Source: a virus (taxonomy: Duplodnaviria; Heunggongvirae; Uroviricota; Caudoviricetes). Taken from it: DNA of 36,622 nt. This document shows, piece after piece, positions 403 to 36,622 of the stretch. Where the stretch lies: IMG/VR virus record IMGVR_UViG_2531839531_000013, positions 1 to 36,622 of that record. The stretch is one strand, 5' to 3'. The notes beneath the pieces were generated by a model. It did no database searches, had not been told where the DNA came from, and was given only the letters and a program-made list of their open reading frames with translations. A program made the translations under genes and the position numbers. Positions within the stretch are counted from its first letter, which is position 1. Every line of letters starts with the position of its first letter.

Positions 403-404
403 AA
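358..404. repeat. attL core: 47-bp direct repeat formed by the ssrA 3' end
   Basis: atgtaggaatttcggacgcgggttcaactcccgccagctccaccaaa is identical to 35131-35177. The flanking bases differ on both sides (g/t upstream, t/a downstream). Confidence 0.92.
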
Positions 405-3097: not shown

Positions 3098-3579
3098 GAC
3101 AGCAGCCCTCCCACCGTTTTACTGATATCGCTTAAGGTAGACGTTGCCGTTTCCTGCAGATTATTCAGTTGCGCACTGAGATCACCGAACATATCGGACA
3201 GGGATTCATCCACCCGTTTGAGCGACAGGGTGAACTCAATCCGGCGCGGCATACCGTCGCGGAAAAACTCCGTTTTAGTCTGATTCAGTCCCTCAATCAC
3301 ATACATGCCATAAATCGTGCCGCTGCCTTCAATCAGGGGCCATGCTTTCCCCTGTTCTGCCATCTGCTCCAGTGCCAGCAACGACAGCCTGCCACCTGTT
3401 ATCTCCGGCATAAGAACACCGGAAAGCGTCAGCATGTCGTTGTCCGGTCCCAGAAACTGCGTGGACGGACGTCGGTTTACCCGGCTGTTTGCCGCATGTC
3501 GCCAGCTGCGTTGATACTGCAGCTCCTGATACGGCACGGTGCGCAGCATAAACACGTACAATCCCAGCACCATCATCAT
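3094..3579 (-). CDS. U: Tail protein gpU
   Basis: 161 aa, translationally coupled between T and D as in P2. Confidence 0.88.
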   Translation of the reverse strand: MMMVLGLYVFMLRTVPYQELQYQRSWRHAANSRVNRRPSTQFLGPDNDMLTLSGVLMPEITGGRLSLLALEQMAEQGKAWPLIEGSGTIYGMYVIEGLNQTKTEFFRDGMPRRIEFTLSLKRVDESLSDMFGDLSAQLNNLQETATSTLSDISKTVGGLLS

Positions 3580-6500: not shown

Positions 6501-6653
6501 GCTCCCGGCCTGATCAAGCTGCTTTATTGCATCGCGGGATTTTTTGACAGCAGCAGCCAGTTCTCTTGAACTGGCCTGCGCAGATCGAAATGGGCGGGTG
6601 AGCTTGTCAACCGCATTAAGAATGACCTGCAGACGCAGGTTGTTATCACTCAT
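3576..6653 (-). CDS. T: Tail tape measure protein gpT
   Basis: 1025 aa with an N-terminal coiled coil, a central Ala/Gly/Leu-rich repetitive hydrophobic region, and position after E/E+E'. Confidence 0.9.
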   Translation of the reverse strand: MSDNNLRLQVILNAVDKLTRPFRSAQASSRELAAAVKKSRDAIKQLDQAGSSLDSFRKLQAENQKLGDRLNYARQRANLLSQELGAMGPPSQRQVVALGRQRLAVQRLEERQKKLQQQTALVRAELYRAGISAKDDAGATARLARETSRYNQELSKQEARLKRLGEAQRRMNAARASYARSLEVRDRIAGAGATTTAAGLAMGAPVMAAVKSYTSMEDAMKGVAKQVNGLRDDNGNRTARFYEMQDAIKAASEQLPMENGAVDFAALVEGGARMNVANPDDSWEDQKRDLLAFASTAAKAATAFELPADELSESLGKIAQLYKIPTRNIEQLGDALNYLDDNAMSKGADIIDVMQRLGGVADRLDYRKAAALGSTFLTLGAAPEVAASAANAMVRELSIATMQSKSFFEGMNLLKLNPEVIEKQMTKDAMGTIQRVLEKVNALPQDKRLSAMTMLFGKEFGDDAAKLANNLPELQRQLKLTAGNDALGSMQKESDINKDSLSAQWLLVKTGAQNTFSSLGETLRQPLMDILYTVKSVTGALRRWVEANPELTGTLMKASAVVAAVTVGLGTLAVALAAVLGPLAVIRLGFSVLGIKTLSSVTAAVTRTSSALSWLAGAPLALLRRGLASSGNAAGLLTAPLSSLRRTASLTGNVLKTVAGAPVALLRSGLSGLRAVAVMFMNPLAALRGGLAAAGTVLRVLASGPLAMLRVALYTVSGLLGALLSPIGLVVTALAGVALVVWKYWQPITAFLGGVVEGFKAAAGPISAAFEPLKPVFQWIGDKVQALWGWFTDLLTPVKSTSAELQSAAAMGRRFGEALAEGLNMVMHPLDSLKSGVSWLLDKLGIVSKEAAKAKLPESVTRQQPATVNADGKVMMPSGGFPSWGYGFAGMYDSGGYIPRGQFGIVGENGPEIVNGPANVTSRRNTAALAAVVAGMMGVAAAPAELPPLHPLALPAKGGEAMVSRAATVPPVQRIEAPMQIIIQTQPGQSAQDIAREVARQLDERERRLKAKARSNYSDQGGYDA

Positions 6654-7082
6654 CGTTGGCCCCGCTTCTCTGAATCGCTTTATACCGCCATTCCAGCACT
6701 TCGGTCAGCGGCATAACGTCAGTAACGGATGGCGGCCAGTGAAAAATGGTGGCGATATCTGCCACCAGATCGTCAACCGTCAGGCTGTCGGTAAACCGGC
6801 AAGCACCGACTTCTTCAACAAAAAAGTGACAACCTCAACCGACATGGCAGTGAGATCTGCCGGGTCCATCTCTGCAATTTCCTGTGCAGTCAGTGCCGGA
6901 CTGGAGATGCGGGGGATCACGGTCATCATCGCGTTTACATCCATATCCATAATGGCCTGCAGGCGTGTACCGCGCAGCGCACCGGACTGCGGTTTACGCA
7001 GCACAATTTCGGTGATTTCTGTTTTACCGCGCTTGATGGGGGTATCCAGTTGAATGGTCTTTTCAGTCTGCTTATCGCTCAT
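6646..7082 (-). CDS. Tail chaperone E+E' (-1 programmed frameshift product)
   Basis: Slippery T TTT TTG lies on the minus strand at 6825-6819 within codons ACT TTT TTG. The -1 frame stays open for 57 codons (VEEVGACRFTDSL...RSGANDE). It ends at TGA 6648-6646, overlapping the T start ATG at 6653. Confidence 0.7.
6780..7082 (-). CDS. E: Tail assembly chaperone gpE
   Basis: 100 aa, located between FII and T. Contains the slippery site for E+E'. Confidence 0.85.
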   Translation of the reverse strand: MSDKQTEKTIQLDTPIKRGKTEITEIVLRKPQSGALRGTRLQAIMDMDVNAMMTVIPRISSPALTAQEIAEMDPADLTAMSVEVVTFLLKKSVLAGLPTA

Positions 7083-7136
7083 TTTGCTGTCCTGTCAATT
7101 GGGTTCTGGCGCGGTATCCCGCGCCGTTCAGATATA

Positions 7137-7652
7137 TCAGAGGCCGAGGGCGTTGCGGTGCGCTTCCATCAGGTCCACACCGTCCACAATTTCCACCATG
7201 TTGATAAGGTCCACTTCATAGAGCACCTCACCATTGATGGTCAGCTTCGCGTAGCTGTTGGTACTGGTCACTTTGGTGGTGTTGCTTTCGCCCGTCTTCC
7301 ACTCGCCGGAATCCACTTCTTTGTGACGTCCACGCACGACAAGCTCCACGGCCTGCACTTCCCCGGTATCGTCACGCTGAATAGAGCCGGTAAAGCGCAG
7401 CTGGATGCCATCCACCGTGGCTTTACCCATCTGTTTAAACAGCAGCAATTCAGTACCACCAATGGAAAATTCTGTGTCCAGCGCACTGTCATCAAGCCCC
7501 AGATCCACATCCACCGCACCCGGCATTCCGCCGCCGCGATACTTCTCATATTTGCGGGTAAATTTCGGCAGCGTCAGCGACTCAACGATCCCCTGCCAGT
7601 TGTTCCCGTCGTTAAACAGGTTCAGGTGTTTTAATTTGCGTGGTAATGCCAT
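7137..7652 (-). CDS. FII: Tail tube protein gpFII
   Basis: 171 aa, immediately downstream of the sheath gene, in P2 order. Confidence 0.9.
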   Translation of the reverse strand: MALPRKLKHLNLFNDGNNWQGIVESLTLPKFTRKYEKYRGGGMPGAVDVDLGLDDSALDTEFSIGGTELLLFKQMGKATVDGIQLRFTGSIQRDDTGEVQAVELVVRGRHKEVDSGEWKTGESNTTKVTSTNSYAKLTINGEVLYEVDLINMVEIVDGVDLMEAHRNALGL

Positions 7653-7661
7653 GTTGTCCCC

Positions 7662-8834
7662 TTACGCGCTGACCTGGCTGGCGAAATTCACCAGGTACTG
7701 ATCGGTGATGCGCTGACGCAGCATCAGGTTTTCAAGTGGCGGCACTGGCGTGTAGTCGTAGTCGATGGTGAGTTTTCCGGCTTTCAGCGTGTCTTTGTCG
7801 TTCACCGACTCATCCAGCCAGCAATCACCACCAATGAGATAGCCCTGACTGACCAGGCTGCGCATTTTGGCGCGGATACCTTCGATAATGTCGCGGGCCA
7901 GCGACGGGTTAAGCGGTTTATCCACCGCCCACATGTGTGCTTCTGCCATCGTGTCCATCAGCACCTGCGCCGTGCGGGTGTAGTTTTCGAAGGCAAAGAG
8001 CGGGTCATCACTCAGGCAGCGGGAACCCCAGAAGCGGAAACCGTCTTTACGCACAAGCGTGGTAACGTCGTTCTGGTTCAGCAGACCTGCATCGGTTGCC
8101 GGGTCCTGCAGATCCCAGAACACATCTGCAGAAATTCCGGTGACACCGTTCACGCCCACGTTGGACAGGCTTTTGTGCCATCCGGTCTGCTCGTCAATTT
8201 TGGCGCGCAGACCAAGCGCACGGGCGGTGGCATATGCCGTTGCTTCGGCATTCAGCACCGTGTCCCAGCCAGTAAAGTCAGGCCAGATCAGCATCCCTTC
8301 GCGCTGGCTGAAGTTTTCACGGTAAGTGATCGCCTCCTGCACTGTCTTGCAGCCATACGCTGACAGGTAAGCAAATCCACGCAGGCTTTGCGCCACGCTC
8401 AGCAACTCAGTAGCTACCGCCTTGGTGTCGTGGCCTGGCACGCCGAGAATGCGCGGTTTAACGCCGAGCTGTGACTGGGCAGATAACAGGGCTTTCATAC
8501 CTGTTTTTTTACCTTCAGCAGTCACTGCGCCGATGATATTGGTCGTGGTTTCGTCTTCCGTTTCACCCTGCGGCACACGCACAACAATGGTCACGGGTTT
8601 TGCCTGGTCAGCGATGGCATCCAGCGAACGGGCCAGAGTACCTGACTCACCCGCTTTACCGCTGGCAGTCAGCACATCAGTGATCAGCACGGGTTTATTA
8701 AGAGGAAACATTTTTGCATCGGCATCATCGCCCGTGCAGACCATACCCACGATGGCGGTGCTCACCGTGGTAATAGATCGGGTGCCTTCGTTGACTTCAA
8801 CAACGCGCACCCCGTGGTGGTAATCCTGAGCCAT
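7662..8834 (-). CDS. FI: Contractile tail sheath protein gpFI
   Basis: 390 aa, first gene of the FI-FII-E-T-U-D operon. Confidence 0.9.
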
Positions 8835-8910
8835 AGTGGCGAACCTCCTGATTGGATTAGGCTTCGCCCTATGTTGAAGTGATTGTGCCTGACAAACAGC
8901 TAAGCGCAGT

Positions 8911-8928
8911 TGTGTCGTTATTCACACA
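8911..8928. promoter_or_regulatory. Ogr/B-type activator site TGT-N12-ACA (late promoter PF)
   Basis: TGTgtcgttattcacACA. The centre is 85.5 bp upstream of the FI ATG (8834). Confidence 0.6.
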
Positions 8929-8976
8929 AAATAACGGTATTTGTCTGCTTGCAGGGATAATCAACATAATGCTGAT

Positions 8977-9543
8977 TCAGGGGGATTCATTGATCTTATT
9001 TGCCGGAAATTTTCTATAAATGGTAGAAACGCCTACATCAAAAATCAGTGCAATACGCTGTCTTGATTCTCCGGCCTCGAGTAAACGCCCAATCTGTGCC
9101 CACTGTTCGGTGGTCAACTTAGGACGGCGTCCACCTACTCTGCCTTTGGCACGAGCTGCAGCCAGCCCTGCCCTGGTACGTTCAACTATCAGTTCGCGTT
9201 CCATTTCAGCCAGGGCACCCATGACATGAAAAAAGAAACGGCCCATTGGGGTACTGGTATCAATACTGTCAGTCAGGCTTCTGAAATTCACACCACGCTG
9301 GCGCAACTCTTCTATCAGCGTAACAAGATGCCGCATACTGCGCCCCAACCTGTCCAGCTTCCAGACAACCAGCGTGTCTCCTGCCGATAGTGTCCTGAGT
9401 AGTTTTTTCAGCCCCGGTCTGTCGGACTTAGTGCCACTGATTTTGTCCTCAAAAATCTGCTCACATCCCGCGCAGTTCAGTGCATTACGTTGCAAATCGG
9501 TGTTCTGGTCATTTGTTGACACGCGTACATAGCCAATAAGCAT
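8977..9543 (-). CDS. Serine DNA invertase (Hin/Gin/Cin/Pin family)
   Basis: MLIGYVRVSTNDQNTDLQRNAL... contains the catalytic Ser motif, and there is a C-terminal HTH. The start is taken at the MLIGY Met (9543), which is preceded by GGGGA. Confidence 0.95.
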   Translation of the reverse strand: MLIGYVRVSTNDQNTDLQRNALNCAGCEQIFEDKISGTKSDRPGLKKLLRTLSAGDTLVVWKLDRLGRSMRHLVTLIEELRQRGVNFRSLTDSIDTSTPMGRFFFHVMGALAEMERELIVERTRAGLAAARAKGRVGGRRPKLTTEQWAQIGRLLEAGESRQRIALIFDVGVSTIYRKFPANKINESP

Positions 9544-9598
9544 GATCATCCCCCTGAATAAAAACCGGAGATGATGCCAGTTAGCTGTTACCTCTGCA

Positions 9599-9624
9599 TT
9601 TTCTTAAACGTTGGTTTGGGAGAA
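9599..9624. repeat. Invertase crossover site (cix/hix-like, 26 bp), left
   Basis: ttttcttaaacgTTggtttgggagaa has reverse complement TTCTCCCAAACC AA CGTTTAAGAAAA. Its half-site and AA core are identical to the site at 11210-11235, in inverted orientation. Confidence 0.8.
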
Positions 9625-9954
9625 GCCAGATATGTCATTCAGCGAGGAGCTAATGCCAATGGTGCGTGGATACGCTGGTCAGATGGTGCAATAGAAGTCT
9701 TTGGAACGGGGGGTTCTAATGATAATGGACTGGCTAAAGTCGTTTATCCAATTGCGCTACCTAAGCTTTCACGTTTTATCAGCATAGCGGAAAGAATAGG
9801 AACGGATTATGGGGGCACATCTAATAATGTTCACGTTTCAATGATCGTGGATGACCAGGTCACTAATACCGGTTTTTATGTCCGCTGCCAGATGTACGAC
9901 GGAACACCATCAACAAGTGCTTTTTCCTGGAGGGTTTATTGTGCGCCTGTTTAA
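9625..9954 (+). CDS. Silent alternative tail-fibre C-terminal cassette (Hv', 109 codons, no start of its own)
   Basis: The frame reads ...FLNV GLGE ARYVIQRGANANG... through the crossover site. H reads ...LTYL GLGE GSALPV... through its own site, so inversion would give an in-frame fusion after H residue 354. Confidence 0.7.
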   Translation, partial: ARYVIQRGANANGAWIRWSDGAIEVFGTGGSNDNGLAKVVYPIALPKLSRFISIAERIGTDYGGTSNNVHVSMIVDDQVTNTGFYVRCQMYDGTPSTSAFSWRVYCAPV

Positions 9955-10138
9955 TCCTGTTACTTTGACTGAAGTAATCCCCGGTCTTCATGACGTGACC
10001 GGGGCTGTTGAATTACCAGAAGATAACTGGTTTTTTACTGCATCTGAAATCCCTGAAGGAATGGAAATATCTGTTAACGAGAAGGGAGAACCCATTCTGA
10101 TTGAGATTAAACCGTCTCAGGAGGAACTGGCCAGATGA
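9941..10138 (+). CDS. Alternative tail-fibre assembly protein fragment (G', 65 codons, GTG start)
   Basis: GGAGGG lies 6 nt upstream of GTG 9941. The ORF starts 14 nt before the Hv' stop and converges on, and overlaps, the 3' end of G (10107-10138). It lacks the conserved C-terminal module present in G. Confidence 0.5.
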   Translation: MRLFNPVTLTEVIPGLHDVTGAVELPEDNWFFTASEIPEGMEISVNEKGEPILIEIKPSQEELAR

Positions 10139-10712
10139 CATCTGGCGCGGTGCTGGTATCTGTTGCCATCACCGCGTCAGTGTAATCCAGCACGGCGTTA
10201 AGTCGGGTGTTTTCTGCCTGCGTCAGCTTCCGCCCGGCCTGCAATTTCAGTTGAATCAGACTAATGGAAACCATTGCAGCATCAATCAGCGACTGCCGCT
10301 GTGTTTCTGCCATGTCTACTGCTGCTCTATGCTGTGCCTCGGTATCCGTCACCCATTTCTCACCATCCCATTTATCGTATGGCGTTAACGGGGCGATAGT
10401 GGTTGTCTTTTCAGGGTAATCACCCGGAGCTGTGATTTCTTTTGATTCTCCTGTTTCGGTGCTATAGACGATTTCACCGCGATGGTCTGGCACATATTCC
10501 CATGAGTTAAAATCTGCAGAACGGCAAATTGCATAACCAGCTTTATATGAGCCAGGAGCATCTAAACAGGAACATGCCGGGATACCGACACCCACAGCAA
10601 GATATTCGGTTGATGTGGAAATATATTCTCGTGTTTCACCATCATAATTATAAACAGTAATATCTCCCGCCTTTGTGGCGATGAGTTCCTTATTTAATAT
10701 AGCTTTATCCAT
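10107..10712 (-). CDS. G: Tail fibre assembly chaperone gpG
   Basis: 201 aa with an ATGA overlap on the H stop. The C-terminal ...LQAGRKLTQAENTRLNAVLDYTDAV...WPVPP motif is typical of Tfa/U-family chaperones. Confidence 0.85.
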   Translation of the reverse strand: MDKAILNKELIATKAGDITVYNYDGETREYISTSTEYLAVGVGIPACSCLDAPGSYKAGYAICRSADFNSWEYVPDHRGEIVYSTETGESKEITAPGDYPEKTTTIAPLTPYDKWDGEKWVTDTEAQHRAAVDMAETQRQSLIDAAMVSISLIQLKLQAGRKLTQAENTRLNAVLDYTDAVMATDTSTAPDVIWPVPPETV

Positions 10713-12271
10713 CAGGCAGCCCTCACGATATAATTAAAGGCAATGTTACGGGGTCGATTTTCGTTTGCAGTTGGAACAATTCTTGAAGCATCAAGGCCAA
10801 TCACTTTTGGGTAAACACTGCCCTCGGACCTTTCTGTCACCATACTTCTGACTAAGGAGAAATAACTATTGTTCGTTGAGGGGTTCAAAGGCACCACTGC
10901 CCCCTTAAACGAGCCTACTGATTCCCATATTGAATAATTTTCGGTGTTTACAGTCTTGAACTCACCATAGATATTACGTATGGCATCGCCCTGAGCGGAT
11001 AATATTGTTCTCCCCGCATCCGCACTACGCCCATCATCCCAGCCACGAATAAATTCACCGCGTAAATCAGGCAATTTATTTGTCGGGTAAGCCTTTGCCA
11101 GTTCCGGGTATTCTTCAGCAGAAAAAGCCGCACCATTGCATTTCAGCCAGCCTGTCGGCGGAGTGGCGGAAGGCCACGGAACAGGCACACCGACAGGTAA
11201 TGCAGAGCCTTCTCCCAAACCAAGGTATGTGAGAAGACCAGCTACATCCTTTCCACTCAAATTGGTAAGCGTATTGTCCAGCGGTTGTTTACCTGCCAGC
11301 GCATTAAGCATTGTCGTGGCAAAGTTCGGATCATTCCCCAGTGCCGCCGCCAGTTCGTTCAGTGTATCCAGTGCAGCAGGTGCAGAACCCACCATTCCTG
11401 CAATCGCCGATTTCACAAAAGCCGTAGTGGCAATCTGTGTATTGTTGACCGACTGCGCCGCCGTGGGGGCTGTTGGCGTTCCGGTGAGTGCCGGACTCGA
11501 CAACGGTGCTTTTAGTGCCAGCGCATTGTTAATGGTGGTACTGAAATTCGGATCATTGTTAATGGCTGCGGCTATTTCTTTCAGCGTGTCCAGCGTGGCT
11601 GGCGCACCATTAATAAGGGCCGTCAGTGCCGCCTGTACAAACGCAGTGGTCGCAACCTGCGTGGTATTATTCCCCGCCGCTGGCGTTGGCGCTTTGGGGG
11701 TTCCGGTAAATGTCGGGCTGGCTTTTGGCGCGTACTGTGAATGCGGGTCCGGTGCGGCAAGATGTTTTGCCATCTGATCATCCGCGTAAACCTTCAGCTC
11801 CAGTGCCTTGTCATCCACATACTTGCGGGTTGCCAGCACTACAGCAGGGTCGATTTTCAGGGTGATATTGTCCGTGCTGCTGGTAATCAGCACCATGCGC
11901 ACGGTCTGAGTGCGCCCGCTACCTTCAGCCAGTTGCGGCTTATAGCTTTCCGGGCAGTTGCCCACGGCAATCAATGCCCCGGACTCATCAAACAAGCCCA
12001 CTTCACGTATCCACCAACCGCCCTCGTTTTCAGGGATCACCTGTTCGGCAATAATCTGGCTGCTGTTCTGCGGGTCGATATAAAGCATATTCAGCGCAGC
12101 CCGGCGTTTCTCATTTACCAGTGCCGTCTGCTTTGCGTCTGGCGTTGGCAATACTCCACCGCCATCGCCCACCGCCATATGGGTAATTTTTAGCGGCACA
12201 CCGAGCGCGGCGGCGCTGGCAAGTTTCGCCGCGCCAATATCCGTCAGCAGGGTATAAAATTTTGTGCTCAT
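10712..12271 (-). CDS. H: Tail fibre protein gpH (current orientation: constant part + Hv)
   Basis: 519 aa with a conserved P2 H-like N-terminus. It contains two tandem ~75-aa repeats (NTTQVATTAFV...DPNF / NNTQIATTAFV...DPNF) and a C-terminal receptor-binding part after GLGE (residues 351-354). Confidence 0.9.
   Translation of the reverse strand: MSTKFYTLLTDIGAAKLASAAALGVPLKITHMAVGDGGGVLPTPDAKQTALVNEKRRAALNMLYIDPQNSSQIIAEQVIPENEGGWWIREVGLFDESGALIAVGNCPESYKPQLAEGSGRTQTVRMVLITSSTDNITLKIDPAVVLATRKYVDDKALELKVYADDQMAKHLAAPDPHSQYAPKASPTFTGTPKAPTPAAGNNTTQVATTAFVQAALTALINGAPATLDTLKEIAAAINNDPNFSTTINNALALKAPLSSPALTGTPTAPTAAQSVNNTQIATTAFVKSAIAGMVGSAPAALDTLNELAAALGNDPNFATTMLNALAGKQPLDNTLTNLSGKDVAGLLTYLGLGEGSALPVGVPVPWPSATPPTGWLKCNGAAFSAEEYPELAKAYPTNKLPDLRGEFIRGWDDGRSADAGRTILSAQGDAIRNIYGEFKTVNTENYSIWESVGSFKGAVVPLNPSTNNSYFSLVRSMVTERSEGSVYPKVIGLDASRIVPTANENRPRNIAFNYIVRAA
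11210..11235. repeat. Invertase crossover site (26 bp), right, inside H
   Basis: TTCTCCCAAACC AA GGTATGTGAGAA, an inverted partner of 9599-9624. Confidence 0.8.
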
Positions 12272-12873
12272 GGATTCACTCTCATTGTGTCAATAACATG
12301 GACCGCCCCGCCTTCATGCGCGGTGCCACCGGAAATAATCGTTTCGTTGATATACGGATAGATCGTGATTTCTTCGCCAAGATAGCTGGCGGCTCCCACC
12401 CAATGCGGGCCGCTGGTCTGCAGATTGATGGACATGCCGATCATGTGGCGGCTACATGGTTTGGCATCGCTTATCAGTCGCTCAAGTTCCAGATAGGTAT
12501 CTTCAGTGATGCCCTGGTCCTGCACGCCGATATCCAGGCGAAACGTGCCCGGTGTTTCTCCGGTCTGCCACCACTCAATAATGCGGATCAGGAATCCGAA
12601 CGGCTCCACCACCCGCCGCACGGCACTGGTGGTCCCTTTATGCTGATGAATATAAAAAGCATCCTTCACCACCTGGCGCTTGACGCTTTCTGTCCAGCCC
12701 TCGTCCCAGCGATCCACAGAGAACGCCCAGGCGAGATAAGGCAGGAAACTGACCGGACAGGTTGCCGGATTCCACAAGTCACGAAGCGGCACCTGCAGAT
12801 CAGAAATCCCGCTGCAGGTTTGCGCCAGTCGGCGCTCCAGTGGTGTTGAACCCGGTGGCAGCAGACTATTCAT
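12268..12873 (-). CDS. I: Baseplate protein gpI
   Basis: 201 aa, P2 order J-I-H, with overlapping stop/start codons. Confidence 0.85.
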   Translation of the reverse strand: MNSLLPPGSTPLERRLAQTCSGISDLQVPLRDLWNPATCPVSFLPYLAWAFSVDRWDEGWTESVKRQVVKDAFYIHQHKGTTSAVRRVVEPFGFLIRIIEWWQTGETPGTFRLDIGVQDQGITEDTYLELERLISDAKPCSRHMIGMSINLQTSGPHWVGAASYLGEEITIYPYINETIISGGTAHEGGAVHVIDTMRVNP

Positions 12874-23521: not shown

Positions 23522-24220
23522 TTATTTGTTTCTTCTTTGTTCACGCCTTGTCTTGGCTTCGATAAGGCGTTGAGGTTCAGTGTAAAGCCGTTCTAAAAAA
23601 AGATAGGTAAAATCTTCAAGATCCTCAGCAGCAGCTTTATCCAAAATACCTTCATGCGCTCCATCATTTCCGTCATCTTTAACGCATTCAGCTAGTTCCC
23701 TTAAAGCTTCAGGCAGTAGATGATTATCAAATAACCACTCCATTCTTAACCCTAGGCTTCTCCTTATTTTTTGCGCAGGCCCTTGCTCCCCATCAGGAAG
23801 AAGTCCTTTTGTGGCATAATCAAGGCAAAGCCTAAACATGGTTGCTGCTGCATTATAACAACCTATAGCCAAACATTTCGCCCCTTCCTCATATGCACTA
23901 TTGATATGCTCAGGTAAGAACTCTGGTGGCTCCTCTACTGCTAAGTCTGCCGGTGATATAGGCCTAACAACCTCTGCAACTTCCTTTAAGCCGAATATTC
24001 CACTTTCCCAATTATAGCCATCTAAAGTTTTATTTTTCGTTAAAGGTCTGCAAAGAAACATTGTCGTTTTATGACACTCTCGGCAAACACAATAGACCTC
24101 GTATTCGTATGTTTTACCCCCGCCCAATGCATTGTAAACCCTAGTGCAATTCAGCCCATTAACATCAAACGCTATTTTTTGTGATCCACATCGTGGACAG
24201 TCATCCACTAACATAACCAT
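23522..24220 (-). CDS. Zinc-ribbon + DUF4145-like domain protein (cargo, 232 aa)
   Basis: The N-terminus CPRCGS...x34...CVCRECHK has four Cys. The C-terminal LGLRMEWLFDNHLLPEALRELAECVKDDGNDGAHEG...AEDLEDFTYLFLERLY matches my memory of the DUF4145 (PF13643) signature. The gene is AT-rich and has a GGGAGGAG SD. Confidence 0.7.
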   Translation of the reverse strand: MVMLVDDCPRCGSQKIAFDVNGLNCTRVYNALGGGKTYEYEVYCVCRECHKTTMFLCRPLTKNKTLDGYNWESGIFGLKEVAEVVRPISPADLAVEEPPEFLPEHINSAYEEGAKCLAIGCYNAAATMFRLCLDYATKGLLPDGEQGPAQKIRRSLGLRMEWLFDNHLLPEALRELAECVKDDGNDGAHEGILDKAAAEDLEDFTYLFLERLYTEPQRLIEAKTRREQRRNK

Positions 24221-24288
24221 GTCAATTACTCCTCCCTATGAAAAAAATGAGTTGAAAAATTGAATATTCACGACTTAAAAAGCTAGCC

Positions 24289-24317
24289 TATTTAACACCA
24301 TAATTTCATTAATTCAA
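24289..24317 (-). promoter_or_regulatory. Putative sigma70 promoter of the ZnR-DUF4145 gene
   Basis: On the minus strand: TTGAAT (24317-24312), a 17-nt spacer, then TAAATA (24294-24289). It begins 14 bp from the cos core. Confidence 0.45.
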
Positions 24318-24330
24318 CCATGAGCGCGCG

Positions 24331-24349
24331 CTCGTATCCCCGCCACGCC
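24331..24349. other. Probable cos cohesive-end site
   Basis: The reverse complement GGCGTGGCGGGGATACGAG shares its first 13 nt with the 19-nt 186 cos end as I remember it (GGCGTGGCGGGGAAAGCAT; P2 GGCGAGGCGGGGAAAGCAC). It sits in a GC-rich patch at the expected position beyond Q. Confidence 0.55.
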
Positions 24350-24390
24350 TGCCCGCTTTGTGTAGTGGTTTTCATGCACCTGCATGACAT

Positions 24391-24418
24391 AAGCAAAAGC
24401 CCGCCAGCTCTGGCGGGC
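24391..24418 (-). terminator. Rho-independent terminator downstream of the HNH gene
   Basis: On the minus strand: GCCCGCCAG-ag-CTGGCGGGC followed by TTTTGCTT. Confidence 0.6.
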
Positions 24419-24531
24419 ATCAGCAAAAACGATCCTCAAACGATCATGCGATTTCATGCGGCATAGACATGCGTTGGCAAAAATGTACGAAATACTCAGC
24501 TTATAGGAAATGGTCTTTTTCCAACCTCCAG

Positions 24532-25251
24532 TTAGCCAAAGCAGAAACCAATATTGCAATTTGAAACTCCACAGTTGTGAAATTGATGTGGACCTACTCT
24601 TAGCTTGTGTTCGTCTCCTACAATCCGAGTCCCCTTAACCAACATATCTAATCTTTCCACAATCAATCTTTCAGGCGCATCAACTTTAATAATTAAACGA
24701 GGACCTTTCCTTTTTTCTATAATAGTTATTCTAGGACCGACAACCTGAACATCCCAATGCCTTGCACTACAAACCCACTCATTCTTAATTAATTCAAGAT
24801 TAACAATACCTTGACTATCGTAAAATTTACCCGAAATAAGAAAAGCATTATTTTCTTTTTCAATGGTTAACAATGGCTCATTTTGAAACATTATTGGTAC
24901 AGTACAGGATTCAAACGTCGCACCACCAAATATTATTGTTGGATGCCTATCAGAAAAGTCCAATATATCGGCCACATTCCCTTTTTGTAAGGCTGCAGGA
25001 GATTCCATTGCTTTAATTATTTTCTCTTTAGAGTAAAGACGTTTCGTTACTTTCGCATGGCACGTAGGACAAAGTAGTGCTATTGCATTTGGAGAGTGCT
25101 CCTTTGCATCAGCGTATGTGGGAATTACATGCTCATACTCAACAATGGGAGAAGCACAAACAACGCAACCGAAGCCACAGCGCTGCCTTACCTCCAGTTT
25201 TACAGGTTCAGGAATTGTTCTAGATAACCCATGCTTGTTAATAGTTGTCAT
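24532..25251 (-). CDS. HNH endonuclease domain protein with unknown C-terminal domain (cargo, 239 aa)
   Basis: CGFGCVVC...VEYEHVIP...HSPNAIALLCPTCHAK carries the HNH/zinc motifs. The C-terminal ~150 aa are beta-rich with no motif I recognise. The gene is AT-rich and occupies the P2 old/tin position. Confidence 0.8.
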   Translation of the reverse strand: MTTINKHGLSRTIPEPVKLEVRQRCGFGCVVCASPIVEYEHVIPTYADAKEHSPNAIALLCPTCHAKVTKRLYSKEKIIKAMESPAALQKGNVADILDFSDRHPTIIFGGATFESCTVPIMFQNEPLLTIEKENNAFLISGKFYDSQGIVNLELIKNEWVCSARHWDVQVVGPRITIIEKRKGPRLIIKVDAPERLIVERLDMLVKGTRIVGDEHKLRVGPHQFHNCGVSNCNIGFCFG

Positions 25252-25373
25252 AACCTTACCTTAAAACTTCGAGAAACCTTTTATATATTGATACTATATC
25301 AACTAACGCCTCGCACAGCTCGTTGTTCAACCTTGCTGACGCCAGAAGCAAGTTCAGACGCCAGCAACGTTTC

Positions 25374-25607
25374 TTAATGCAGCCAGCTGTCGTCTTCCCA
25401 CACCTTCTGCATAATTTTCATCACTTGCTTCCTTTCTTCGTCCAGTTGCAGTCCGGTCAGTTCCACACCGTTAGAGCTACCTTTGCGGATGCGAATTACC
25501 GTTTTTGGATATAGGGGGCGCAGATTGCGGTAAAGCTCGGATTCAAGGGCGTCCAGGGTAGACTGGCTAATCTTCTGCTCTTTATCGATCATTATTTCAA
25601 TGCGCAT
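25374..25607 (-). CDS. DinI-family protein (77 aa)
   Basis: MRIEIMIDKEQKISQSTLDALESELYRNL...KIMQKVWEDDSWLH aligns with E. coli DinI (MRIEVTIAK...DALAGELSRR...ILQETWESADDWF). GAGGTG SD. Confidence 0.8.
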   Translation of the reverse strand: MRIEIMIDKEQKISQSTLDALESELYRNLRPLYPKTVIRIRKGSSNGVELTGLQLDEERKQVMKIMQKVWEDDSWLH

Positions 25608-25617
25608 AAAAGTCACC

Positions 25618-25806
25618 TCAGCTGATGACATCCATTGAGCGGTTGTATTCGTGGGTTCTGATTTTTGCCATGAGTTCATCTGTCAGTTCAGAAACCCACT
25701 GCAAAGCCAGCCCCTTCTCTTCATCACTACACTCACTAGCCGCTACAAGTTTAAGAAAAAAATCAATGCGCTGGAGCTTCAAAGACTCCAAAAAATAGTC
25801 CTGCAT
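25618..25806 (-). CDS. Small SOS-controlled protein (62 aa), possible Tum-like antirepressor N-part
   Basis: AGGAGG lies 5 nt upstream of ATG 25806. It is the first gene after the LexA box and sits 10 nt upstream of the DinI-like gene. Confidence 0.5.
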   Translation of the reverse strand: MQDYFLESLKLQRIDFFLKLVAASECSDEEKGLALQWVSELTDELMAKIRTHEYNRSMDVIS

Positions 25807-30807: not shown

Positions 30808-31050
30808 TTACTTACCAACAATGACGCGGAAGTTGGAATGTCCGAGGGATTCACGGACCTGATCAGTTTTGTACATCAGATAACGCAGACTTACGCGGCC
30901 TTTGTTTTTTTCTTTCTTGACCATGTACTTAGCAAGTTGACCATGGTGAATTTTTTGGTAAACAGAGCCGCGGGAAATGCCCTCCCACTCTGCGAACTCT
31001 GCAGGTGTTGCCATCTCTTTTGGTACACGAATTGAAATATCAGTACTCAT
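30808..31050 (-). CDS. apl: Apl/Cox-like excisionase-regulator
   Basis: 80 aa, HTH-like, the first gene transcribed from pR and divergent from cI. Confidence 0.7.
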   Translation of the reverse strand: MSTDISIRVPKEMATPAEFAEWEGISRGSVYQKIHHGQLAKYMVKKEKNKGRVSLRYLMYKTDQVRESLGHSNFRVIVGK

Positions 31051-31171: not shown

Positions 31172-31804
31172 ATGTTAAACATCAGAATGGGTTCCGATAC
31201 GGGAGGTAAAGCAGCTATTGAGAGGCTGCTTGCGGCTTATGGATTCACAACTAAGCAGGCATTAAGTGAGCACCTGAATGTCTCAAAAAGCACTATGGCA
31301 AACAGAGTGTTACGTGACAGCTTTCCTGCTGACTGGATAATTCAGTGCGCACTAGAAACCGGTGTTTCGTTGCTTTGGTTAGCTACAGGACAGGGAAGCA
31401 TGAAAGCAGGATCTGAGACTGAAAAAAGATCTCATAATGAGAACAAACAAGCAATTAAACCGTTATCTAAACTCATAACTCCATCTATTCCTAAAGGAAC
31501 CTTGGAGAATGGACAACTCAGTATTGATGAAGAGATTTTCCTAGACCACAGCATATTACCTGCAAATTATGAAGAATCGATGTTCTTAGAAACCCCTACT
31601 GATTGTTATCTCATCGATAAATCAGTTAAACAAGTCAGCAATGGATTCTGGCTTATCAATATTGATGGAATGATTATTATTGCAAAAATTATGCGGATTC
31701 CCGGCAATAAGATTGTAGTAAATCAAGATGAAGCGTCTTTCGAGTGCTCTGCTGATGATGTGGAAGTTATTGGGCGTGCAGTCAAAGTAATAAAGAGTAT
31801 CTAA
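31172..31804 (+). CDS. cI: CI-like immunity repressor (186 type)
   Basis: 210 aa with an N-terminal HTH (TTKQALSEHLNVSKSTMANRV) and a C-terminal oligomerisation domain. It lies upstream of, and is co-oriented with, int. Confidence 0.8.
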   Translation: MLNIRMGSDTGGKAAIERLLAAYGFTTKQALSEHLNVSKSTMANRVLRDSFPADWIIQCALETGVSLLWLATGQGSMKAGSETEKRSHNENKQAIKPLSKLITPSIPKGTLENGQLSIDEEIFLDHSILPANYEESMFLETPTDCYLIDKSVKQVSNGFWLINIDGMIIIAKIMRIPGNKIVVNQDEASFECSADDVEVIGRAVKVIKSI

Positions 31805-31806
31805 AC

Positions 31807-32823
31807 ATGACTGTCAGAAAACAGCCAAACGGCAAATGGTTGTGTGAGTGCTATCCCAATGGACGCAATGGCAAGCGCGTGCGTAAGCAATTTGCTACGA
31901 AAGGAGAAGCCATTGCTTTTGAAAGCTTCACAATGGAAGAAGTGAATAAAAAACCGTGGCTAGGTGAAAAGGATGATCGGCGACGCCTATCAGAATTAAT
32001 TGAGCTTTGGTATTCCCTGTATGGCCAGACACTCGCAGACCCCAAGCGCCTCATGGCGAAACTTAGAATTATCTGTAATGGTCTAGGCGACCCCATCGCC
32101 TCAGAACTGACAGCCGGTGACTTTACAAAATACCGCGAAGCACGGTTAAAAGGCGACGTTCGTAACGAAGACGGCACACTAATGTCGCCAGTAAAACCAC
32201 GCACGGTGAATCTTGAGCAACGTAACCTATCATCGGTTTTCGGCACATTGAAAAAACTAGGCCACTGGTCAGCACCAAATCCTCTCGCCGGGCTGCCAAC
32301 ATTTAAAATCGCTGAGGGGGAACTGGCGTTCCTGACCTCGGAAGAAATTAAACGTCTGCTAGATGCCTGCGCTGATTCTCAAAACCCCAGTCTGCTTTTG
32401 ATTGCAAAAATATGCCTGGCCACCGGCGCACGCTGGAGTGAAGCCGAAAACCTGCAGGGCCATCAGTTATCTAAATACCGCATCACTTATACCAAGACGA
32501 AGGGCAAGAAAAACCGCACCGTGCCGATATCTCAAGATCTGTATGACGAACTCCCCAAGAACAGAGGGAAGCTATTCACCCCGTGCAGAAAAGCCTTTGA
32601 ACGGGCAGTAAAGCGAGCTGGCATCGAGCTGCCAGAGGGCCAATGCACTCACGTGCTACGTCATACATTCGCCAGTCATTTTATGATGAATGGCGGAAAC
32701 ATACTGGTCCTACGCGATATTCTGGGCCATGCCGATATAAAAATGACGATGATTTACGCCCACTTTTCGCCGGATCATCTTGAAGATGCAGTTACTAAAA
32801 ACCCTTTATGCAACTTAAGATAG
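31807..32823 (+). CDS. int: Tyrosine integrase (P2/186 family)
   Basis: 338 aa with ATGARWSEA (Arg), HVLRHTFASH (HxxR) and LGHADIKMTMIYAH (His/Tyr). Confidence 0.9.
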   Translation: MTVRKQPNGKWLCECYPNGRNGKRVRKQFATKGEAIAFESFTMEEVNKKPWLGEKDDRRRLSELIELWYSLYGQTLADPKRLMAKLRIICNGLGDPIASELTAGDFTKYREARLKGDVRNEDGTLMSPVKPRTVNLEQRNLSSVFGTLKKLGHWSAPNPLAGLPTFKIAEGELAFLTSEEIKRLLDACADSQNPSLLLIAKICLATGARWSEAENLQGHQLSKYRITYTKTKGKKNRTVPISQDLYDELPKNRGKLFTPCRKAFERAVKRAGIELPEGQCTHVLRHTFASHFMMNGGNILVLRDILGHADIKMTMIYAHFSPDHLEDAVTKNPLCNLR

Positions 32824-32908
32824 AGTAACTTATGAAAATAAACTCAAATTATTTACAAATATAATATTCAGCAGGTTATCCATTCTTATTTAACTCTTCA
32901 GACTGAGA

Positions 32909-33130
32909 TTAGATTTTATTTATAGAATAAGATAATTTCATATCACAAAAAACCTGTAAGCCCTCATCTTTGTTGTATAAAAACATAAAAGATGCCATAT
33001 TTAAAAAAGTAGAAAAGCATTGCAATGCAACATTAAAAATAAACCAATAAAAACCAGTCATTAGAAAATGAAAAAAAACAAAAACATTTTTTATCAAAGC
33101 TTCAGTCTGACTACTAGTTTGACTCTGCAA
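32909..33130 (-). CDS. Possible small hydrophobic protein (73 codons, non-ATG start)
   Basis: An open frame that is unusually long for such AT-rich DNA. Two hydrophobic stretches (VFVFFHFLMTGFYWFIFNVAL, FSTFLNMASFMFLY). TTG start, no clear SD. Confidence 0.25.
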   Translation of the reverse strand: MQSQTSSQTEALIKNVFVFFHFLMTGFYWFIFNVALQCFSTFLNMASFMFLYNKDEGLQVFCDMKLSYSINKI

Positions 33131-33137
33131 TTAACTA

Positions 33138-33169
33138 TCAAGATGATCAATATTTATTGATCATCTTGA
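33138..33169. repeat. 32-bp near-perfect palindrome with two GATC sites
   Basis: tcaagatgatcaata-tt-tattgatcatcttga, located 33 bp downstream of the deaminase stop. There is no flanking T-run. Confidence 0.7.
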
Positions 33170-33201
33170 AGTTGCCCTCAGGAAAGATGAGTATAATATT
33201 T

Positions 33202-34935
33202 CTACTCAAGAAGATATTCTAACTCATCTTTTATCGGGATAACTTGCTCATAAAGTCGGTGATATGACTTCCCAATTGCGCCTCTGAATTGTATTAACTT
33301 TGGTGGCTTGTTACCTATATTAATAATATGGTCTTGAGCTATACCTGGGTAGGGATCAATAAATACAATTTCAGATATACCTAACTGATAAGCTTTTTTC
33401 GCACACAGCTCACAGGGACTGGCAGTTGTATATAACCTCCCCCCCTGAACGCCAATGCCACCATATTTTGCAAGTTGTAAAAATGCGTTTTCCTCAGCAT
33501 GTAATGCACGTGTATGAACTTGATTACCTTTTTTATCTTTATCAAGATCATTATGTATATCTTTAAAACAATAAGATAAGTTCCTGCCTCTATAAATATC
33601 ACCAGTTTTATCTATCGCCCTAAAATTTAATAGTTTCTCATTAGCTTTAATTCTGAAAGAACTATTATTTCTCTCATAATGACTGTACACTTTTTCATCA
33701 AAGTCGTTCATTAGGCCATCTAGCGATCTCATAGAGCAAGGAATCTGACCGTTGGCGACATCATTCCAACCCACTGATTTTATTGAATTTTCACCATCAG
33801 TTACTACAGCTCCCACCTGTCTAGATATACAACCAGAGTTTAATTTTACCGTATACGCAACTTGCATAACCCTTTCCATTGCAGTAGGTGTTATCAGACC
33901 AGGATGCTTCATCAGTGCGATGTACCACGCTAATTGTGCTTTTAAAATATTGTCATTATCAAATTCATTTTTTGGGTTAAAAATGTGTATATCTGATAGT
34001 TCAATGCATTTAGTTACATTTGGATTAGTGAGATGTTTGTAAGAGTTATCACCTTTACCTGACTCTACAGAATCTATTTCCTCTATCTGCTTTTCAGAAA
34101 ACTTATGTAGTTTCCGCAAATAGTTTGTTCGATGTTCATCTGGGGCATTTATTGACATTAAATGAAATGCAGAATATCTATCCTTAAAAAATTTTGCTTC
34201 ATATGGATTTCTAATAGCATCTATGACAATTAATGCGTTATCTCTTTTGCTTTTTCTTATTAATTTAATAACCCTATTAATAGTTTCCGGCAAATGAAAA
34301 ACAGATTTAGGTATAAACTCTTTATCTTCAAAATCGACTTCAATACGCCCACGGCGTCTAATTGACTTACCTGCTAACTGATAGACTGAAACATATAAAT
34401 TTGAGTTTATCGCATTTAGTTCAGCTTTGAATTCCTTAGTAAATTTTCTAACTAACCTCAAAATTGATATAAATTTATTAATCGTTTTTTCATTAAGCTT
34501 CAATTCACTATTATGATCAAGCAAATTCTCAATTACATTTTTAAATCTTGTTAAAATGAGATTATCTGAAAATACACCAAAAGTTAATACATTATCTAAA
34601 TGCTCTTTACTGATAGATTTATTAGATGATAGAATAAACTCAGAAGCTTCTTCAACTGTTAACATCAAAAGATACGCTGAGATTAGGTCACTCACCTTAA
34701 TTGAGTAAAAATTTTCCCAGTGATTTTCTGCGAATTTTTTAACTATATTATAACGATGGACATCCAATCCCTTGTAAAAACCCTGTAATTTACTTACATC
34801 AGGGAAGACTGTTTTTTCGTTTTCAAGAATATTAGCTGTTGTTGTGCAACCAGAACCAGTTCGACCTGTCAAACCGACTAAAATAAACTGCCCATTTTCA
34901 AGGAAAAGCTCACTAACGAATTTTTTTTCTTTCAT
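33202..34935 (-). CDS. P-loop kinase-like + cytidine/dCMP deaminase fusion (dCTP-deaminase type anti-phage protein)
   Basis: N-terminal Walker A GLTGRTGSGCTT. C-terminal zinc-deaminase motifs RQVGAVV, HAEENA and PCELCAKK. The region is very AT-rich (for example, 34441-34500 has 11 G/C in 60 nt). ATG 34935 is preferred over GTG 34938. Confidence 0.85.
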   Translation of the reverse strand: MKEKKFVSELFLENGQFILVGLTGRTGSGCTTTANILENEKTVFPDVSKLQGFYKGLDVHRYNIVKKFAENHWENFYSIKVSDLISAYLLMLTVEEASEFILSSNKSISKEHLDNVLTFGVFSDNLILTRFKNVIENLLDHNSELKLNEKTINKFISILRLVRKFTKEFKAELNAINSNLYVSVYQLAGKSIRRRGRIEVDFEDKEFIPKSVFHLPETINRVIKLIRKSKRDNALIVIDAIRNPYEAKFFKDRYSAFHLMSINAPDEHRTNYLRKLHKFSEKQIEEIDSVESGKGDNSYKHLTNPNVTKCIELSDIHIFNPKNEFDNDNILKAQLAWYIALMKHPGLITPTAMERVMQVAYTVKLNSGCISRQVGAVVTDGENSIKSVGWNDVANGQIPCSMRSLDGLMNDFDEKVYSHYERNNSSFRIKANEKLLNFRAIDKTGDIYRGRNLSYCFKDIHNDLDKDKKGNQVHTRALHAEENAFLQLAKYGGIGVQGGRLYTTASPCELCAKKAYQLGISEIVFIDPYPGIAQDHIINIGNKPPKLIQFRGAIGKSYHRLYEQVIPIKDELEYLLE

Positions 34936-35017
34936 CACGTCCCACTTATGAATGTAAGAATATTCAACATATTAATTATAATTTATTAACTCATTTTGTT
35001 CTAGATACTTGATGTAA

Positions 35018-35036
35018 TGGCGGCACTTTGGCGACG
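35018..35036 (+). repeat. Putative Int arm-type binding sites (TGGCGGCA / TGGCGACG, 11-bp phasing)
   Basis: Same octamer family, orientation and phasing as 451-469, about 100 bp from the att core. Confidence 0.4.
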
Positions 35037-35130
35037 GAGCATTAAAAACGCGTAAGACGAGCAAATACAACAAAACACTAACACATTGTTTTTAAATATA
35101 AATAGCTGTTTTTACTATACTAAAAATGGT

Positions 35131-35177
35131 ATGTAGGAATTTCGGACGCGGGTTCAACTCCCGCCAGCTCCACCAAA
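35131..35177. repeat. attR core of the 186-like prophage, and also the ssrA-derived junction of the downstream intA island
   Basis: A 47-bp copy of the ssrA 3' end, identical to 358-404. Confidence 0.92.
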
Positions 35178-35222
35178 ATTCTCCATCGGTGATTACCAGA
35201 GTCATCCGATGAAGTCCTAAGA

Positions 35223-35254
35223 GCCCGCACGGCGCAAGCCCTGCGGGCTTTTTT
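35223..35254 (+). terminator. Native ssrA rho-independent terminator (displaced by the prophage)
   Basis: GCCCGCA-cggcgcaagccc-TGCGGGC followed by TTTTTT. The sequence after the repeat matches the E. coli ssrA downstream region as I remember it. Confidence 0.7.
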
Positions 35255-35380
35255 GTGCCCTCAATTTGTCCCGCGAAGTCCGAAGAAAACTAATTAAATC
35301 CGATCCTTTTAGGCACCTTGTTAGGCACCTCATAAAGCTTTATTGTTTTTTGAGGTGCCTAAAACTATGGAAACCCGGCA

Positions 35381-36622
35381 ATGGCAAGACAAACCAAACC
35401 TCTATCCGTTAAAGAAATAGAATCAGCCAAACCCAAGGAGGCGGACTACGTTCTCTATGATGGCGATGGCCTTGAGCTACTCATTAAATCCAGCGGGAGT
35501 AAAATCTGGCAGTTTCGCTACATTCGCCCTGTCACCAAGAAACGAGCAAAGAAGAGCATAGGCTCCTACCCGTCAGTTACCCTTGCCGATGCCAGAAACT
35601 ACCGTGCAGAGTCCCGCTCACTACTGGCTAAACAGATCGATCCGCAGGAACATCAGCAAGAACAATTGCGCAGTTCGCTGGAAGCCAAAACCAACACTTT
35701 CCAACTCGTAGCTGAACGTTGGTGGAATGTGAAGAAAGCCAGTGTGACAGAGGACTATGCGGAAGATATCTGGCGCTCTCTTGAAAGAGACGTCTTTCCT
35801 GCGATTGGCGACGTTAGCGTTACAGATATTAAAGCTCATACACTGGTTCAGGCCGTACAACCGGTTCAGGCCAGAGGAGCACTGGAAACTGTTCGTCGCC
35901 TGTGCCAACGTATTAATGAGGTCATGATCTATGCCCAGAACACAGGGCTGATTGATGCTGTTCCCAGCGTTAATATCGGTAAAGCCTTCGAGAAGCCTCA
36001 GAAAAAGAACATGCCCAGCATTCGACCGGATCAGCTACCTCAGTTAATGCAGACGATGCGAACAGCCAGCATTAGCCTTTCCACACGCTGCCTGTTCATG
36101 TGGCAACTTCTTACTATTACCCGCCCTGCCGAAGCGGCTGAAGCTCTCTGGGAAGAGGTAGACATAGAAGCGCGAGAGTGGAAGATTCCTGCAGCACGCA
36201 TGAAAATGAACCGCGACCATACTGTTCCATTGTCAGATGAAGCAATTGCGATACTAGAGATGATGAAGCCGTTAAGTGGAAATCGAGAATTTATCTTTCC
36301 CAGCCGCATCAAGCCAAACCAGCCGATGAACAGTCAGACCGTAAACGCATCGCTAAAACGCGCAGGTTTTGGTGGGGTGCTCGTTTCACACGGCCTGCGA
36401 TCTATCGCCAGTACAGCCCTTAATGAGCAGGGATTTCCACCTGATGTTATTGAGGCTGCACTTGCTCATGTGGATAAGAATGAGGTTCGTCGTGCGTATA
36501 ACCGTAGTGATTATCTTGAGCAGCGACGGCCTATGATGCAGTGGTGGGCTGATTTTGTGATGGCTGCAGATCACGGTAGTATGATTGAAGGAGGGATAAA
36601 GGCAATGCGGTTAGTTGGATGA
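35381..36622 (+). CDS. intA: P4-family tyrosine integrase (CP4-57 IntA-like)
   Basis: 413 aa. MARQTKPL...LYDGDGL.LLIKSSGSK.WQFRY N-terminus, with TITRPAEAA, HGLRSIAST and AHVDKNEVRRAYNRSDY catalytic motifs. Closely resembles K-12 IntA as I remember it. Confidence 0.93.
   Translation: MARQTKPLSVKEIESAKPKEADYVLYDGDGLELLIKSSGSKIWQFRYIRPVTKKRAKKSIGSYPSVTLADARNYRAESRSLLAKQIDPQEHQQEQLRSSLEAKTNTFQLVAERWWNVKKASVTEDYAEDIWRSLERDVFPAIGDVSVTDIKAHTLVQAVQPVQARGALETVRRLCQRINEVMIYAQNTGLIDAVPSVNIGKAFEKPQKKNMPSIRPDQLPQLMQTMRTASISLSTRCLFMWQLLTITRPAEAAEALWEEVDIEAREWKIPAARMKMNRDHTVPLSDEAIAILEMMKPLSGNREFIFPSRIKPNQPMNSQTVNASLKRAGFGGVLVSHGLRSIASTALNEQGFPPDVIEAALAHVDKNEVRRAYNRSDYLEQRRPMMQWWADFVMAADHGSMIEGGIKAMRLVG

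Follow-up and report, generated by a model that had tools for sequence, protein, structure and literature searches.

The window analysed here, a 36,622-nucleotide stretch of caudoviricete DNA (IMG/VR record IMGVR_UViG_2531839531_000013), contains a minus-strand gene at 33202-34935 that is very probably a single-gene anti-phage deoxycytidine triphosphate (dCTP) deaminase of the Tal et al. 2022 type, within the AvcD/DcdV superfamily. The gene is carried as a moron in the slot between the integrase gene (int) and the phage attachment site (attP) of a 186/Fels-2-like prophage that integrates in ssrA. The original prediction, which was made from the letters of the window, had proposed a fusion of a kinase-like domain and a cytidine deaminase that belongs to the known dCTP-deaminase defence type, and the results support that interpretation. 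The system is already known, and its location is real and instructive rather than new.

The family assignment is carried by curated models. The PADLOC dCTPase model (PDLC02373) matches the protein with an E value of 2.9e-145. The NCBIfam equivalog NF041025, "anti-phage dCTP deaminase", scores 423.7 bits against a cut-off of 400, with an alignment that spans profile positions 1-437 of 437. RefSeq holds the identical gene under the same name (WP_000660070.1; Escherichia coli TUM1887 and many strains). Thus both checks proposed with the prediction, a PADLOC run and a hidden Markov model of dCTP deaminases, returned the predicted family and agree with the database name. Placement among ComEB or the housekeeping deoxycytidine monophosphate (dCMP) deaminases, the outcome named in advance as contrary, did not occur: ComEB (TIGR02571) reaches 37.1 bits against a cut-off of 219.45, and the match covers only residues 476-530, a 55-residue zinc motif. 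In the public assembly collection, 1064 blocks index the exact protein. No close homologue is carried by any deposited phage genome in the collection searched.

The open reading frame (ORF) extends from 33202 to 34938 and encodes 578 amino acids (aa) when started at GTG. The 577-aa form that starts at the ATG is equal in length to the RefSeq coding sequence (CDS; 1734 nt). An ORF of 1.7 kb within DNA of 33% G+C content (GC) is far above chance expectation. The two zinc-deaminase motifs that had been read at the C-terminus, HAEENA and PCELCAKK, were found there, and HAEENA aligns with the HAE motif of the T4 dCMP deaminase. The Walker A motif that had been read at the N-terminus is also present but degenerate, as Cys30 replaces the canonical Lys in G24-R-T-G-S-G29-C30-T31. 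Across 30 homologues, the P-loop is invariant from about G21/G24 to C30, and H479, A480, E481, P507, C508, C511, G29 and C30 are each invariant. Pfam dCMP_cyt_deam_1 matches residues 354-526 (E 1.3e-14); the match takes 173 residues for 97 model positions, which leaves roughly 75 extra residues in the domain. The kinase half matches weakly by sequence (AAA_18, E 0.04; TIGR00152, E 0.039).

To compare folds, an AlphaFold model of the protein built on the 30 homologues was submitted to Foldseek. The C-terminal half matched the dCMP deaminases of T4, human, PBCV-1 and S-TIM5 (E 4.7e-4), and the N-terminal half matched the dephospho-CoA kinases 4i1u, 1t3h and 2f6r together with adenylate-kinase relatives (E from 2.6e-3). 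A sequence search of the PDB returned no solved full-length homologue; the deaminase domain alone was matched. The proposed fusion is therefore borne out by Pfam for the deaminase half and by the fold search for both halves, and the predicted fold confirms the two-domain architecture of a kinase-like and a dCMP-deaminase domain. The protein shares the catalytic fold and the HAE/PCxxC zinc site with the metabolic dCMP deaminases (T4 Cd, 1vq2; human DCTD, 2w4l; PBCV-1 bi-DCD, 7fh4; ComEB), and Cys369 and Cys400 align with Cys-bearing segments (SKCCS and VNCC) of T4 Cd. In contrast, the metabolic enzymes are about 140-190 aa long and lack the kinase-like domain, whereas the 577-aa protein has both domains.

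Two E. coli genes of this type have been validated, AW1.7 (576 aa) and U09 (577 aa); the candidate rule was the presence of kinase-like and cytidine/dCMP deaminase domains in one protein of more than 350 aa (10.1101/2021.04.26.441389). Both domains are found in the single 577-aa protein of the window, which resembles these enzymes in two-domain architecture, in length and in passing the curated models. It is 72% identical over 100% of its length to the 576-aa cluster P0083/P0086, a cluster with which the cloned AW1.7 gene agrees exactly in its first 105 residues. The AW1.7 mutations G29A and C30A abolished defence (10.1101/2021.04.26.441389), and G29 and C30 occupy identical residue numbers in the window protein. 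AW1.7 gave wider defence than U09 in the same study (10.1101/2021.04.26.441389).

The relation to U09 extends to the genomic context. The 399 nt of upstream DNA in the U09 construct run from a chromosomal flank through an ssrA-type att core, the P arm and the cassette upstream region to the start codon. This DNA is about 91% identical to the window over 238 nt (hand count on the alignment), and its alignment with the NCTC9038 variant, which encodes a protein 97% identical to that of the window, is better still, with a score of 229 over about 238 nt. Because the upstream DNA and the att context match, U09 almost certainly carries the window cassette in the same prophage slot, with att core, P arm and upstream DNA in common. 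A near-identical allele from this slot appears to have been tested already.

The window contains a complete P2-like prophage of the 186/Fels-2 type that is integrated in the 3' end of ssrA; the transfer-messenger RNA (tmRNA) gene lies at 40-402, on which ARAGORN and Rfam agree. At the right end, an Apl/Cox-like gene (30808-31050, minus) is followed by CI (31172-31804) and int (31807-32823). The GC content drops after the int stop from about 50% to 26-39% until about 35000, and it averages 31.3% in 32824-35017 against 52.1% in the remaining prophage. The right edge of the cassette and the P arm were placed by an alignment of seven loci, including Fels-2, SEN8, Cartapus and RM10466. Backbone homology resumes at about 35013-35017, and the cassette therefore extends from 32824 to about 35012. 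The very AT-rich insertion of the original prediction is thus real, although its length is 2.19 kb and not the 2.3 kb first given. About 117 bp separate the int stop of Fels-2 from its att core, an interval that contains no gene, and SEN8 likewise has no gene between int and the att core. The insertion reading holds because these two slots are empty. Tandem repeats TGGCGGCA/TGGCGACG, 11 bp apart, lie at 35018-35036, and a matching pair lies at 451-469 in the other arm; as expected, both pairs fit Int arm-type sites. The deaminase gene is inside the att-bounded element and is therefore part of an excisable element. The coordinates are collected in Table 1.

Table 1. Features of the deaminase gene, its cassette and the host prophage, and genes found in the corresponding slot of relatives.
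Feature	Position	Strand	Remarks
att core, attL	358-404		47 bp; 3' end of ssrA tmRNA
P2/186-type tyrosine integrase	31807..32823	+	Int_N, Phage_integrase; stop = left edge of cargo slot
AT-rich spacer	32824..33201		378 bp, 25.7% GC; between convergent int and deaminase stops
Anti-phage dCTP deaminase CDS	33202..34935	minus	577 aa from ATG at 34935
P-loop kinase-like domain	roughly aa 1-340		N-terminal
Zinc cytidine/dCMP-type deaminase domain	roughly aa 350-530		C-terminal
P-loop GLTGRTGSGCTT	aa 21-32; 34840..34875	minus	degenerate Walker A
HAEENA motif	aa 479-484; 33484..33501	minus	zinc-ligand His479, catalytic Glu481
PCELCAKK motif	aa 507-514; 33394..33417	minus	zinc ligands Cys508, Cys511
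Cassette-specific upstream region	34936..35012	minus	about 79 bp; right edge from alignment
Backbone P arm of attP	35013..35130	+	common to relatives without deaminase
att core, attR	35131..35177	+	47-bp exact duplicate of 358-404
Divergent deaminase alleles (two)	other ssrA prophages of E. coli: JX21CE8, EC5502, strain 127, E1620		70% and 75% protein identity
Deaminase allele	Citrobacter		89% protein identity
Roughly 400-aa family	Cartapus, JL05, 23-AB02114		40-50% identical among members
222-aa protein	RM10466, LR14		
163-aa + 209-aa pair	EC101		
516-aa protein	Klebsiella phage ST437-OXA245phi4.1		
Unannotated cargo loci	L010:2335-3003, L009:3334-4539, L023:2033-3259, L025:2033-3289, L026:2028-3578, L024:2048-3107, L029:5872-6498		

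The int-attP intervals of related prophages, whose comparison had been suggested with the prediction, proved to be empty or to hold varying cargo. Occupants of the slot alternate between dCTP deaminases, present as three divergent alleles, and unannotated cargo of at least four unrelated types or families. Of 5426 complete E. coli genomes, 20 carry the cassette of the window (at least 95% identical, full length); among the roughly 140 E. coli genomes that match at 60-80% identity, most have the P arm only. The exact protein is placed between int and att in 10 of 10 sampled contexts. In one of these, GCA_013045105.1 (locus 4365-12523 of our context L019), a prophage remnant next to smpB retains, apart from the deaminase and int, just an ogr-like gene and a further ORF; here the defence gene outlives its phage. 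Neither Pfam nor PADLOC gave a significant match for the non-deaminase occupants; the one marginal match, in PADLOC, had an E value of 0.0073. GC content is 33-35% in the five single-gene non-deaminase occupants that were measured, and the non-deaminase occupants as a whole are candidate undescribed defence genes. The annotated non-deaminase cargo genes are all co-directional with int.

This arrangement is like that of the P2-phage defence hotspots, in which an AT-rich accessory gene occupies a fixed slot that holds other cargo in relatives (PMC9122126, PMC13586616). Unlike the two classical P2 hotspots, the gpA-gpQ interval and the tail-gene slot, the interval here lies between int and att. 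It has been reported as a minor hotspot that holds 3% of P2-element defence systems (Nucleic Acids Research 2026, PMC13586616), and the main texts of PMC9122126 and PMC13586616 do not mention dCTP deaminase. The location was put forward originally as the notable point: the placement between int and the att core was right, but it is not new, because the P2 int-att hotspot has been reported and U09 was cloned from the same att-adjacent context.

The slot of the window also retains a trace of earlier cargo. In Citrobacter, the order within the slot is int, a 208-aa gene and the deaminase, and the 208-aa protein is 69% identical to the 222-aa cargo protein of RM10466. Residues 2-32 of the 208-aa protein match 32834-32926 on the plus strand (48% over 31 aa, E 1.2e-5, tblastn) with an in-frame stop, and a second collinear piece in another frame at about 32973-33020 is weak by itself (E 0.31). 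Given the tblastn match, at least part of the spacer derives from the 5' end of an earlier occupant that has decayed. A plausible history, as read from these sequences, is that a slot with int and the 222-aa gene gained the deaminase on the att side and that the older gene was then lost. The decayed remnant records a turnover of cargo in the slot. A perfect 15-bp inverted repeat at 33138-33169 probably forms a hairpin or terminator between the convergent genes. A 73-aa ORF at 32909-33130 (minus) was rejected as a gene: its frame is not kept between near-identical variants, which differ by homopolymer indels, with three further 1-nt insertions in that of NCTC9038, and the ORF has no Pfam or PADLOC match.

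In the cluster-2 and cluster-3 alleles (L002, L003 and L004: 3974-3989), the deaminase stop is just 9-13 bp from the convergent int stop. This distance leaves no room for a terminator, so transcription of the deaminase should run antisense into int, and transcriptional interference with int expression is possible at these loci.

Elsewhere, genes of the AW1.7 type adjoin a P4-type integrase and, unlike the window gene, are not in a P2-like prophage. In Citrobacter and relatives (L032-L036, locus 2289-5731), the AW1.7-type 576-aa allele lies about 525 bp from this integrase in divergent orientation. The integrase has an Arm-DNA-bind_3 domain and belongs to a separate integrative element with a DUF927 protein. 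LF82 carries a further deaminase allele within the transfer region of an integrative and conjugative element. dCTP deaminases thus recur beside integrases at element edges.

The family, the architecture, the conservation of the motifs, the cassette boundaries and the att-bounded placement come from the analyses presented here, and the mechanism is taken from published homologues (10.1101/2021.04.26.441389, 10.1101/2021.03.31.437871, PMC10511110). In the lysogen, the deaminase gene would be transcribed convergently with int from a promoter of its own, located in the roughly 79 bp upstream, and its product would be kept inactive as long as the cell is uninfected. Shut-off of host transcription by a superinfecting lytic phage would activate the enzyme, which would then deaminate dCTP (and dCMP) to deoxyuridine nucleotides. 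The collapse of the dCTP pool would stall phage DNA replication, and the lysogen, hence the prophage, would be protected from competitors. A promoter-like pair is inferred in the upstream region, with a -35 TAGAAC (35003-34998), a spacing of 17 nt and a perfect -10 TATAAT (34980-34975) on the minus strand; the predicted 5' untranslated region is about 30-40 nt.

A point of comparison for regulation is AvcID (DcdV-DifV; Hsueh et al. 2022), a type III toxin-antitoxin system of the V. cholerae island VSP-1, V. parahaemolyticus, P. mirabilis and plasmid p58 of enterotoxigenic E. coli (ETEC) H10407. By itself, the AvcD toxin causes filamentation, and its cognate RNA neutralises it post-translationally. 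The window protein and AvcD have in common the P-loop kinase-like and dCMP-type deaminase domains, a non-canonical Walker A without Lys (Cys30 here; the published V. cholerae mutant is S52K) and the RefSeq name anti-phage dCTP deaminase. AvcD depletes deoxycytidine nucleotides upon infection, and by analogy the same is proposed for the window enzyme. The brake of AvcID is a labile small RNA (sRNA) encoded just upstream (10.1101/2021.03.31.437871, PMC10511110), and the AvcD proteins of V. cholerae, V. parahaemolyticus, P. mirabilis and ETEC H10407 all depend on a cognate sRNA of their own encoded upstream (PMC10511110). The window gene could accordingly be read as one half of such a two-part system, with an unrecognised RNA antitoxin encoded either upstream, in the P arm and cassette region, or downstream in the spacer of 378 bp, a reading that we consider quite improbable. 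Its layout is seen at the ETEC locus, where a 186-nt ORF lies 13 nt upstream of avcD, and a labile inhibitor fits the finding that T7 escape mutants of the AW1.7 defence map to a host-transcription shut-off protein (10.1101/2021.04.26.441389). However, AvcD has a co-oriented sRNA gene (AvcI, at least about 150 nt) immediately upstream, and nothing comparable was detected in the window. The cassette-specific upstream DNA is only about 79 bp long, and the next 118 bp are backbone P arm that is also present in gene-less phages. The ETEC H10407 avcI region shares only chance 9-10-mers with 32700-35400, although the missing similarity proves little because the known AvcI sRNAs share no sequence similarity. 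An Rfam scan of 32700-35400 returned only the tmRNA fragment and noise, the ORF list of the window has no small ORF upstream of the deaminase, and the 5' upstream RNA folds no better than its shuffles (z = 0.46). Sliding synonymous-site identity to four divergent alleles is 0.33-0.54 in the 5' CDS against about 0.49 overall, with no excess of conservation. An AW1.7 construct with only 83 nt of upstream DNA still defended from its native promoter (10.1101/2021.04.26.441389). The spacer holds the remnant of a decaying pseudogene, in which homopolymers vary, and the cluster-2 and cluster-3 alleles of the same slot lack this spacer. ETEC AvcD (532 aa) is only 25.5% identical over 71% of the window protein, and AvcID is carried on a plasmid or genomic island, whereas the window gene is in a prophage att slot.

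Two further readings concern the substrate and the purpose of the deaminase. The catalytic domain is of the dCMP-deaminase type, T4 Cd (1vq2) and human DCTD are its best matches among solved structures, and the Cd homologues of T-even phages match the C-terminal domain at 28-30% identity, all of which would suit an enzyme of nucleotide metabolism that serves the phage itself or housekeeping rather than defence and, like dCMP deaminase, ComEB or T4 Cd, supplies deoxyuridine monophosphate for deoxythymidine triphosphate synthesis during prophage replication. This role is highly improbable in view of the ComEB score (37 bits against 219), the 340-aa kinase-like domain that metabolic dCMP deaminases lack, the passing of the defence-family equivalog model and the closeness to genes shown to defend. 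The gene is, moreover, an AT-rich accessory gene that is absent from most relatives of the phage, and the deposited phage genomes of the collection hold no close homologue. That the protein is instead a polynucleotide-editing deaminase, an APOBEC- or MafB19-like toxin that mutates phage DNA or RNA and does not deplete the nucleotide pool, is scarcely credible. The weak Pfam matches to MafB19-deam (21 bits, cut-off 27), Bd3614-deam and APOBEC_N that hint at it are all under their gathering cut-offs and reflect the shared zinc motif only, the fold matches are dCMP deaminases of free nucleotides, and the authors who tested the AW1.7 enzyme found no evidence that it edits the genome or the transcriptome (Figure S2 legend, 10.1101/2021.04.26.441389). 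For the ComEB, housekeeping and APOBEC-like readings alike, the grounds of rejection were score and architecture.

Several points weigh against the preferred reading of a single-gene anti-phage dCTP deaminase. The structural model has a mean pLDDT (predicted local distance difference test) of 69, which is a moderate confidence, with a good N-terminal half and the deaminase domain as its weakest part. The near-identity to the U09 protein is deduced from equal length and near-identical upstream DNA, and defence and dCTP depletion by the window allele itself are predicted from its relatives. A sigma-70 consensus scan upstream of the gene reported no promoter, because the -35 matches at 3 of 6 positions only; the promoter is a call made by eye. 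Regulation on the AvcID pattern requires an sRNA antitoxin encoded upstream, and the searches made here turned up no AvcI-like RNA. With no detectable sRNA, the trigger step is therefore borrowed from relatives, of which those of the AvcID type are only about 25% identical.

Other intervals of the prophage hold accessory genes as well. Between the attL core and ogr (1688-1939)/gpD, a 257-aa reverse transcriptase is encoded at 511-1284 (minus), with a 62-aa ORF directly upstream at 1253-1441. It matches Pfam RVT_1 (E 1.8e-21), and its best PADLOC matches are retron-type reverse transcriptases (RT_VI, E 7.8e-18); the other att-proximal interval therefore also holds a likely defence gene, which is possibly a retron. 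The classical gpA-gpQ hotspot (23522-25679, minus) contains three genes, which encode a 239-aa HNH-domain protein, a DinI-like protein and a 232-aa DUF4145 protein with a weak PADLOC match to PD-T7-4 (E 1.2e-6). At 8977-9954, a 190-aa resolvase/invertase (Pfam Resolvase, E 2.3e-53) adjoins an opposite-strand C-terminal tail-fibre fragment, which looks like an invertible host-range switch of the tail fibre. Beyond the prophage, the native ssrA terminator hairpin is retained at 35219-35252. Right beside attR, a CP4-57/P4-type integrase at 35381-36622 (Arm-DNA-bind_3, Phage_int_M, Phage_integrase), at whose stop codon the window ends, shows that a second integrative element lies in tandem at ssrA.

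The finding adds little, since a characterised nucleotide-depletion defence gene is here recorded once more on a temperate phage. A tentative and rather unlikely extension is that the 576-577-aa enterobacterial clade is a self-contained sensor-effector without an RNA antitoxin. Its roughly 79 bp of private regulatory DNA would then abut the Int arm-type sites, so that occupancy of attR by Int or integration host factor, or the altered upstream context after excision, could tune its expression; if this is true, expression of the defence gene would follow the state of the prophage. The locus cleanly illustrates the int-att cargo slot that ssrA-integrating P2/186-like prophages have, and for discovery the deaminase holds less promise than its unannotated neighbours in this slot.

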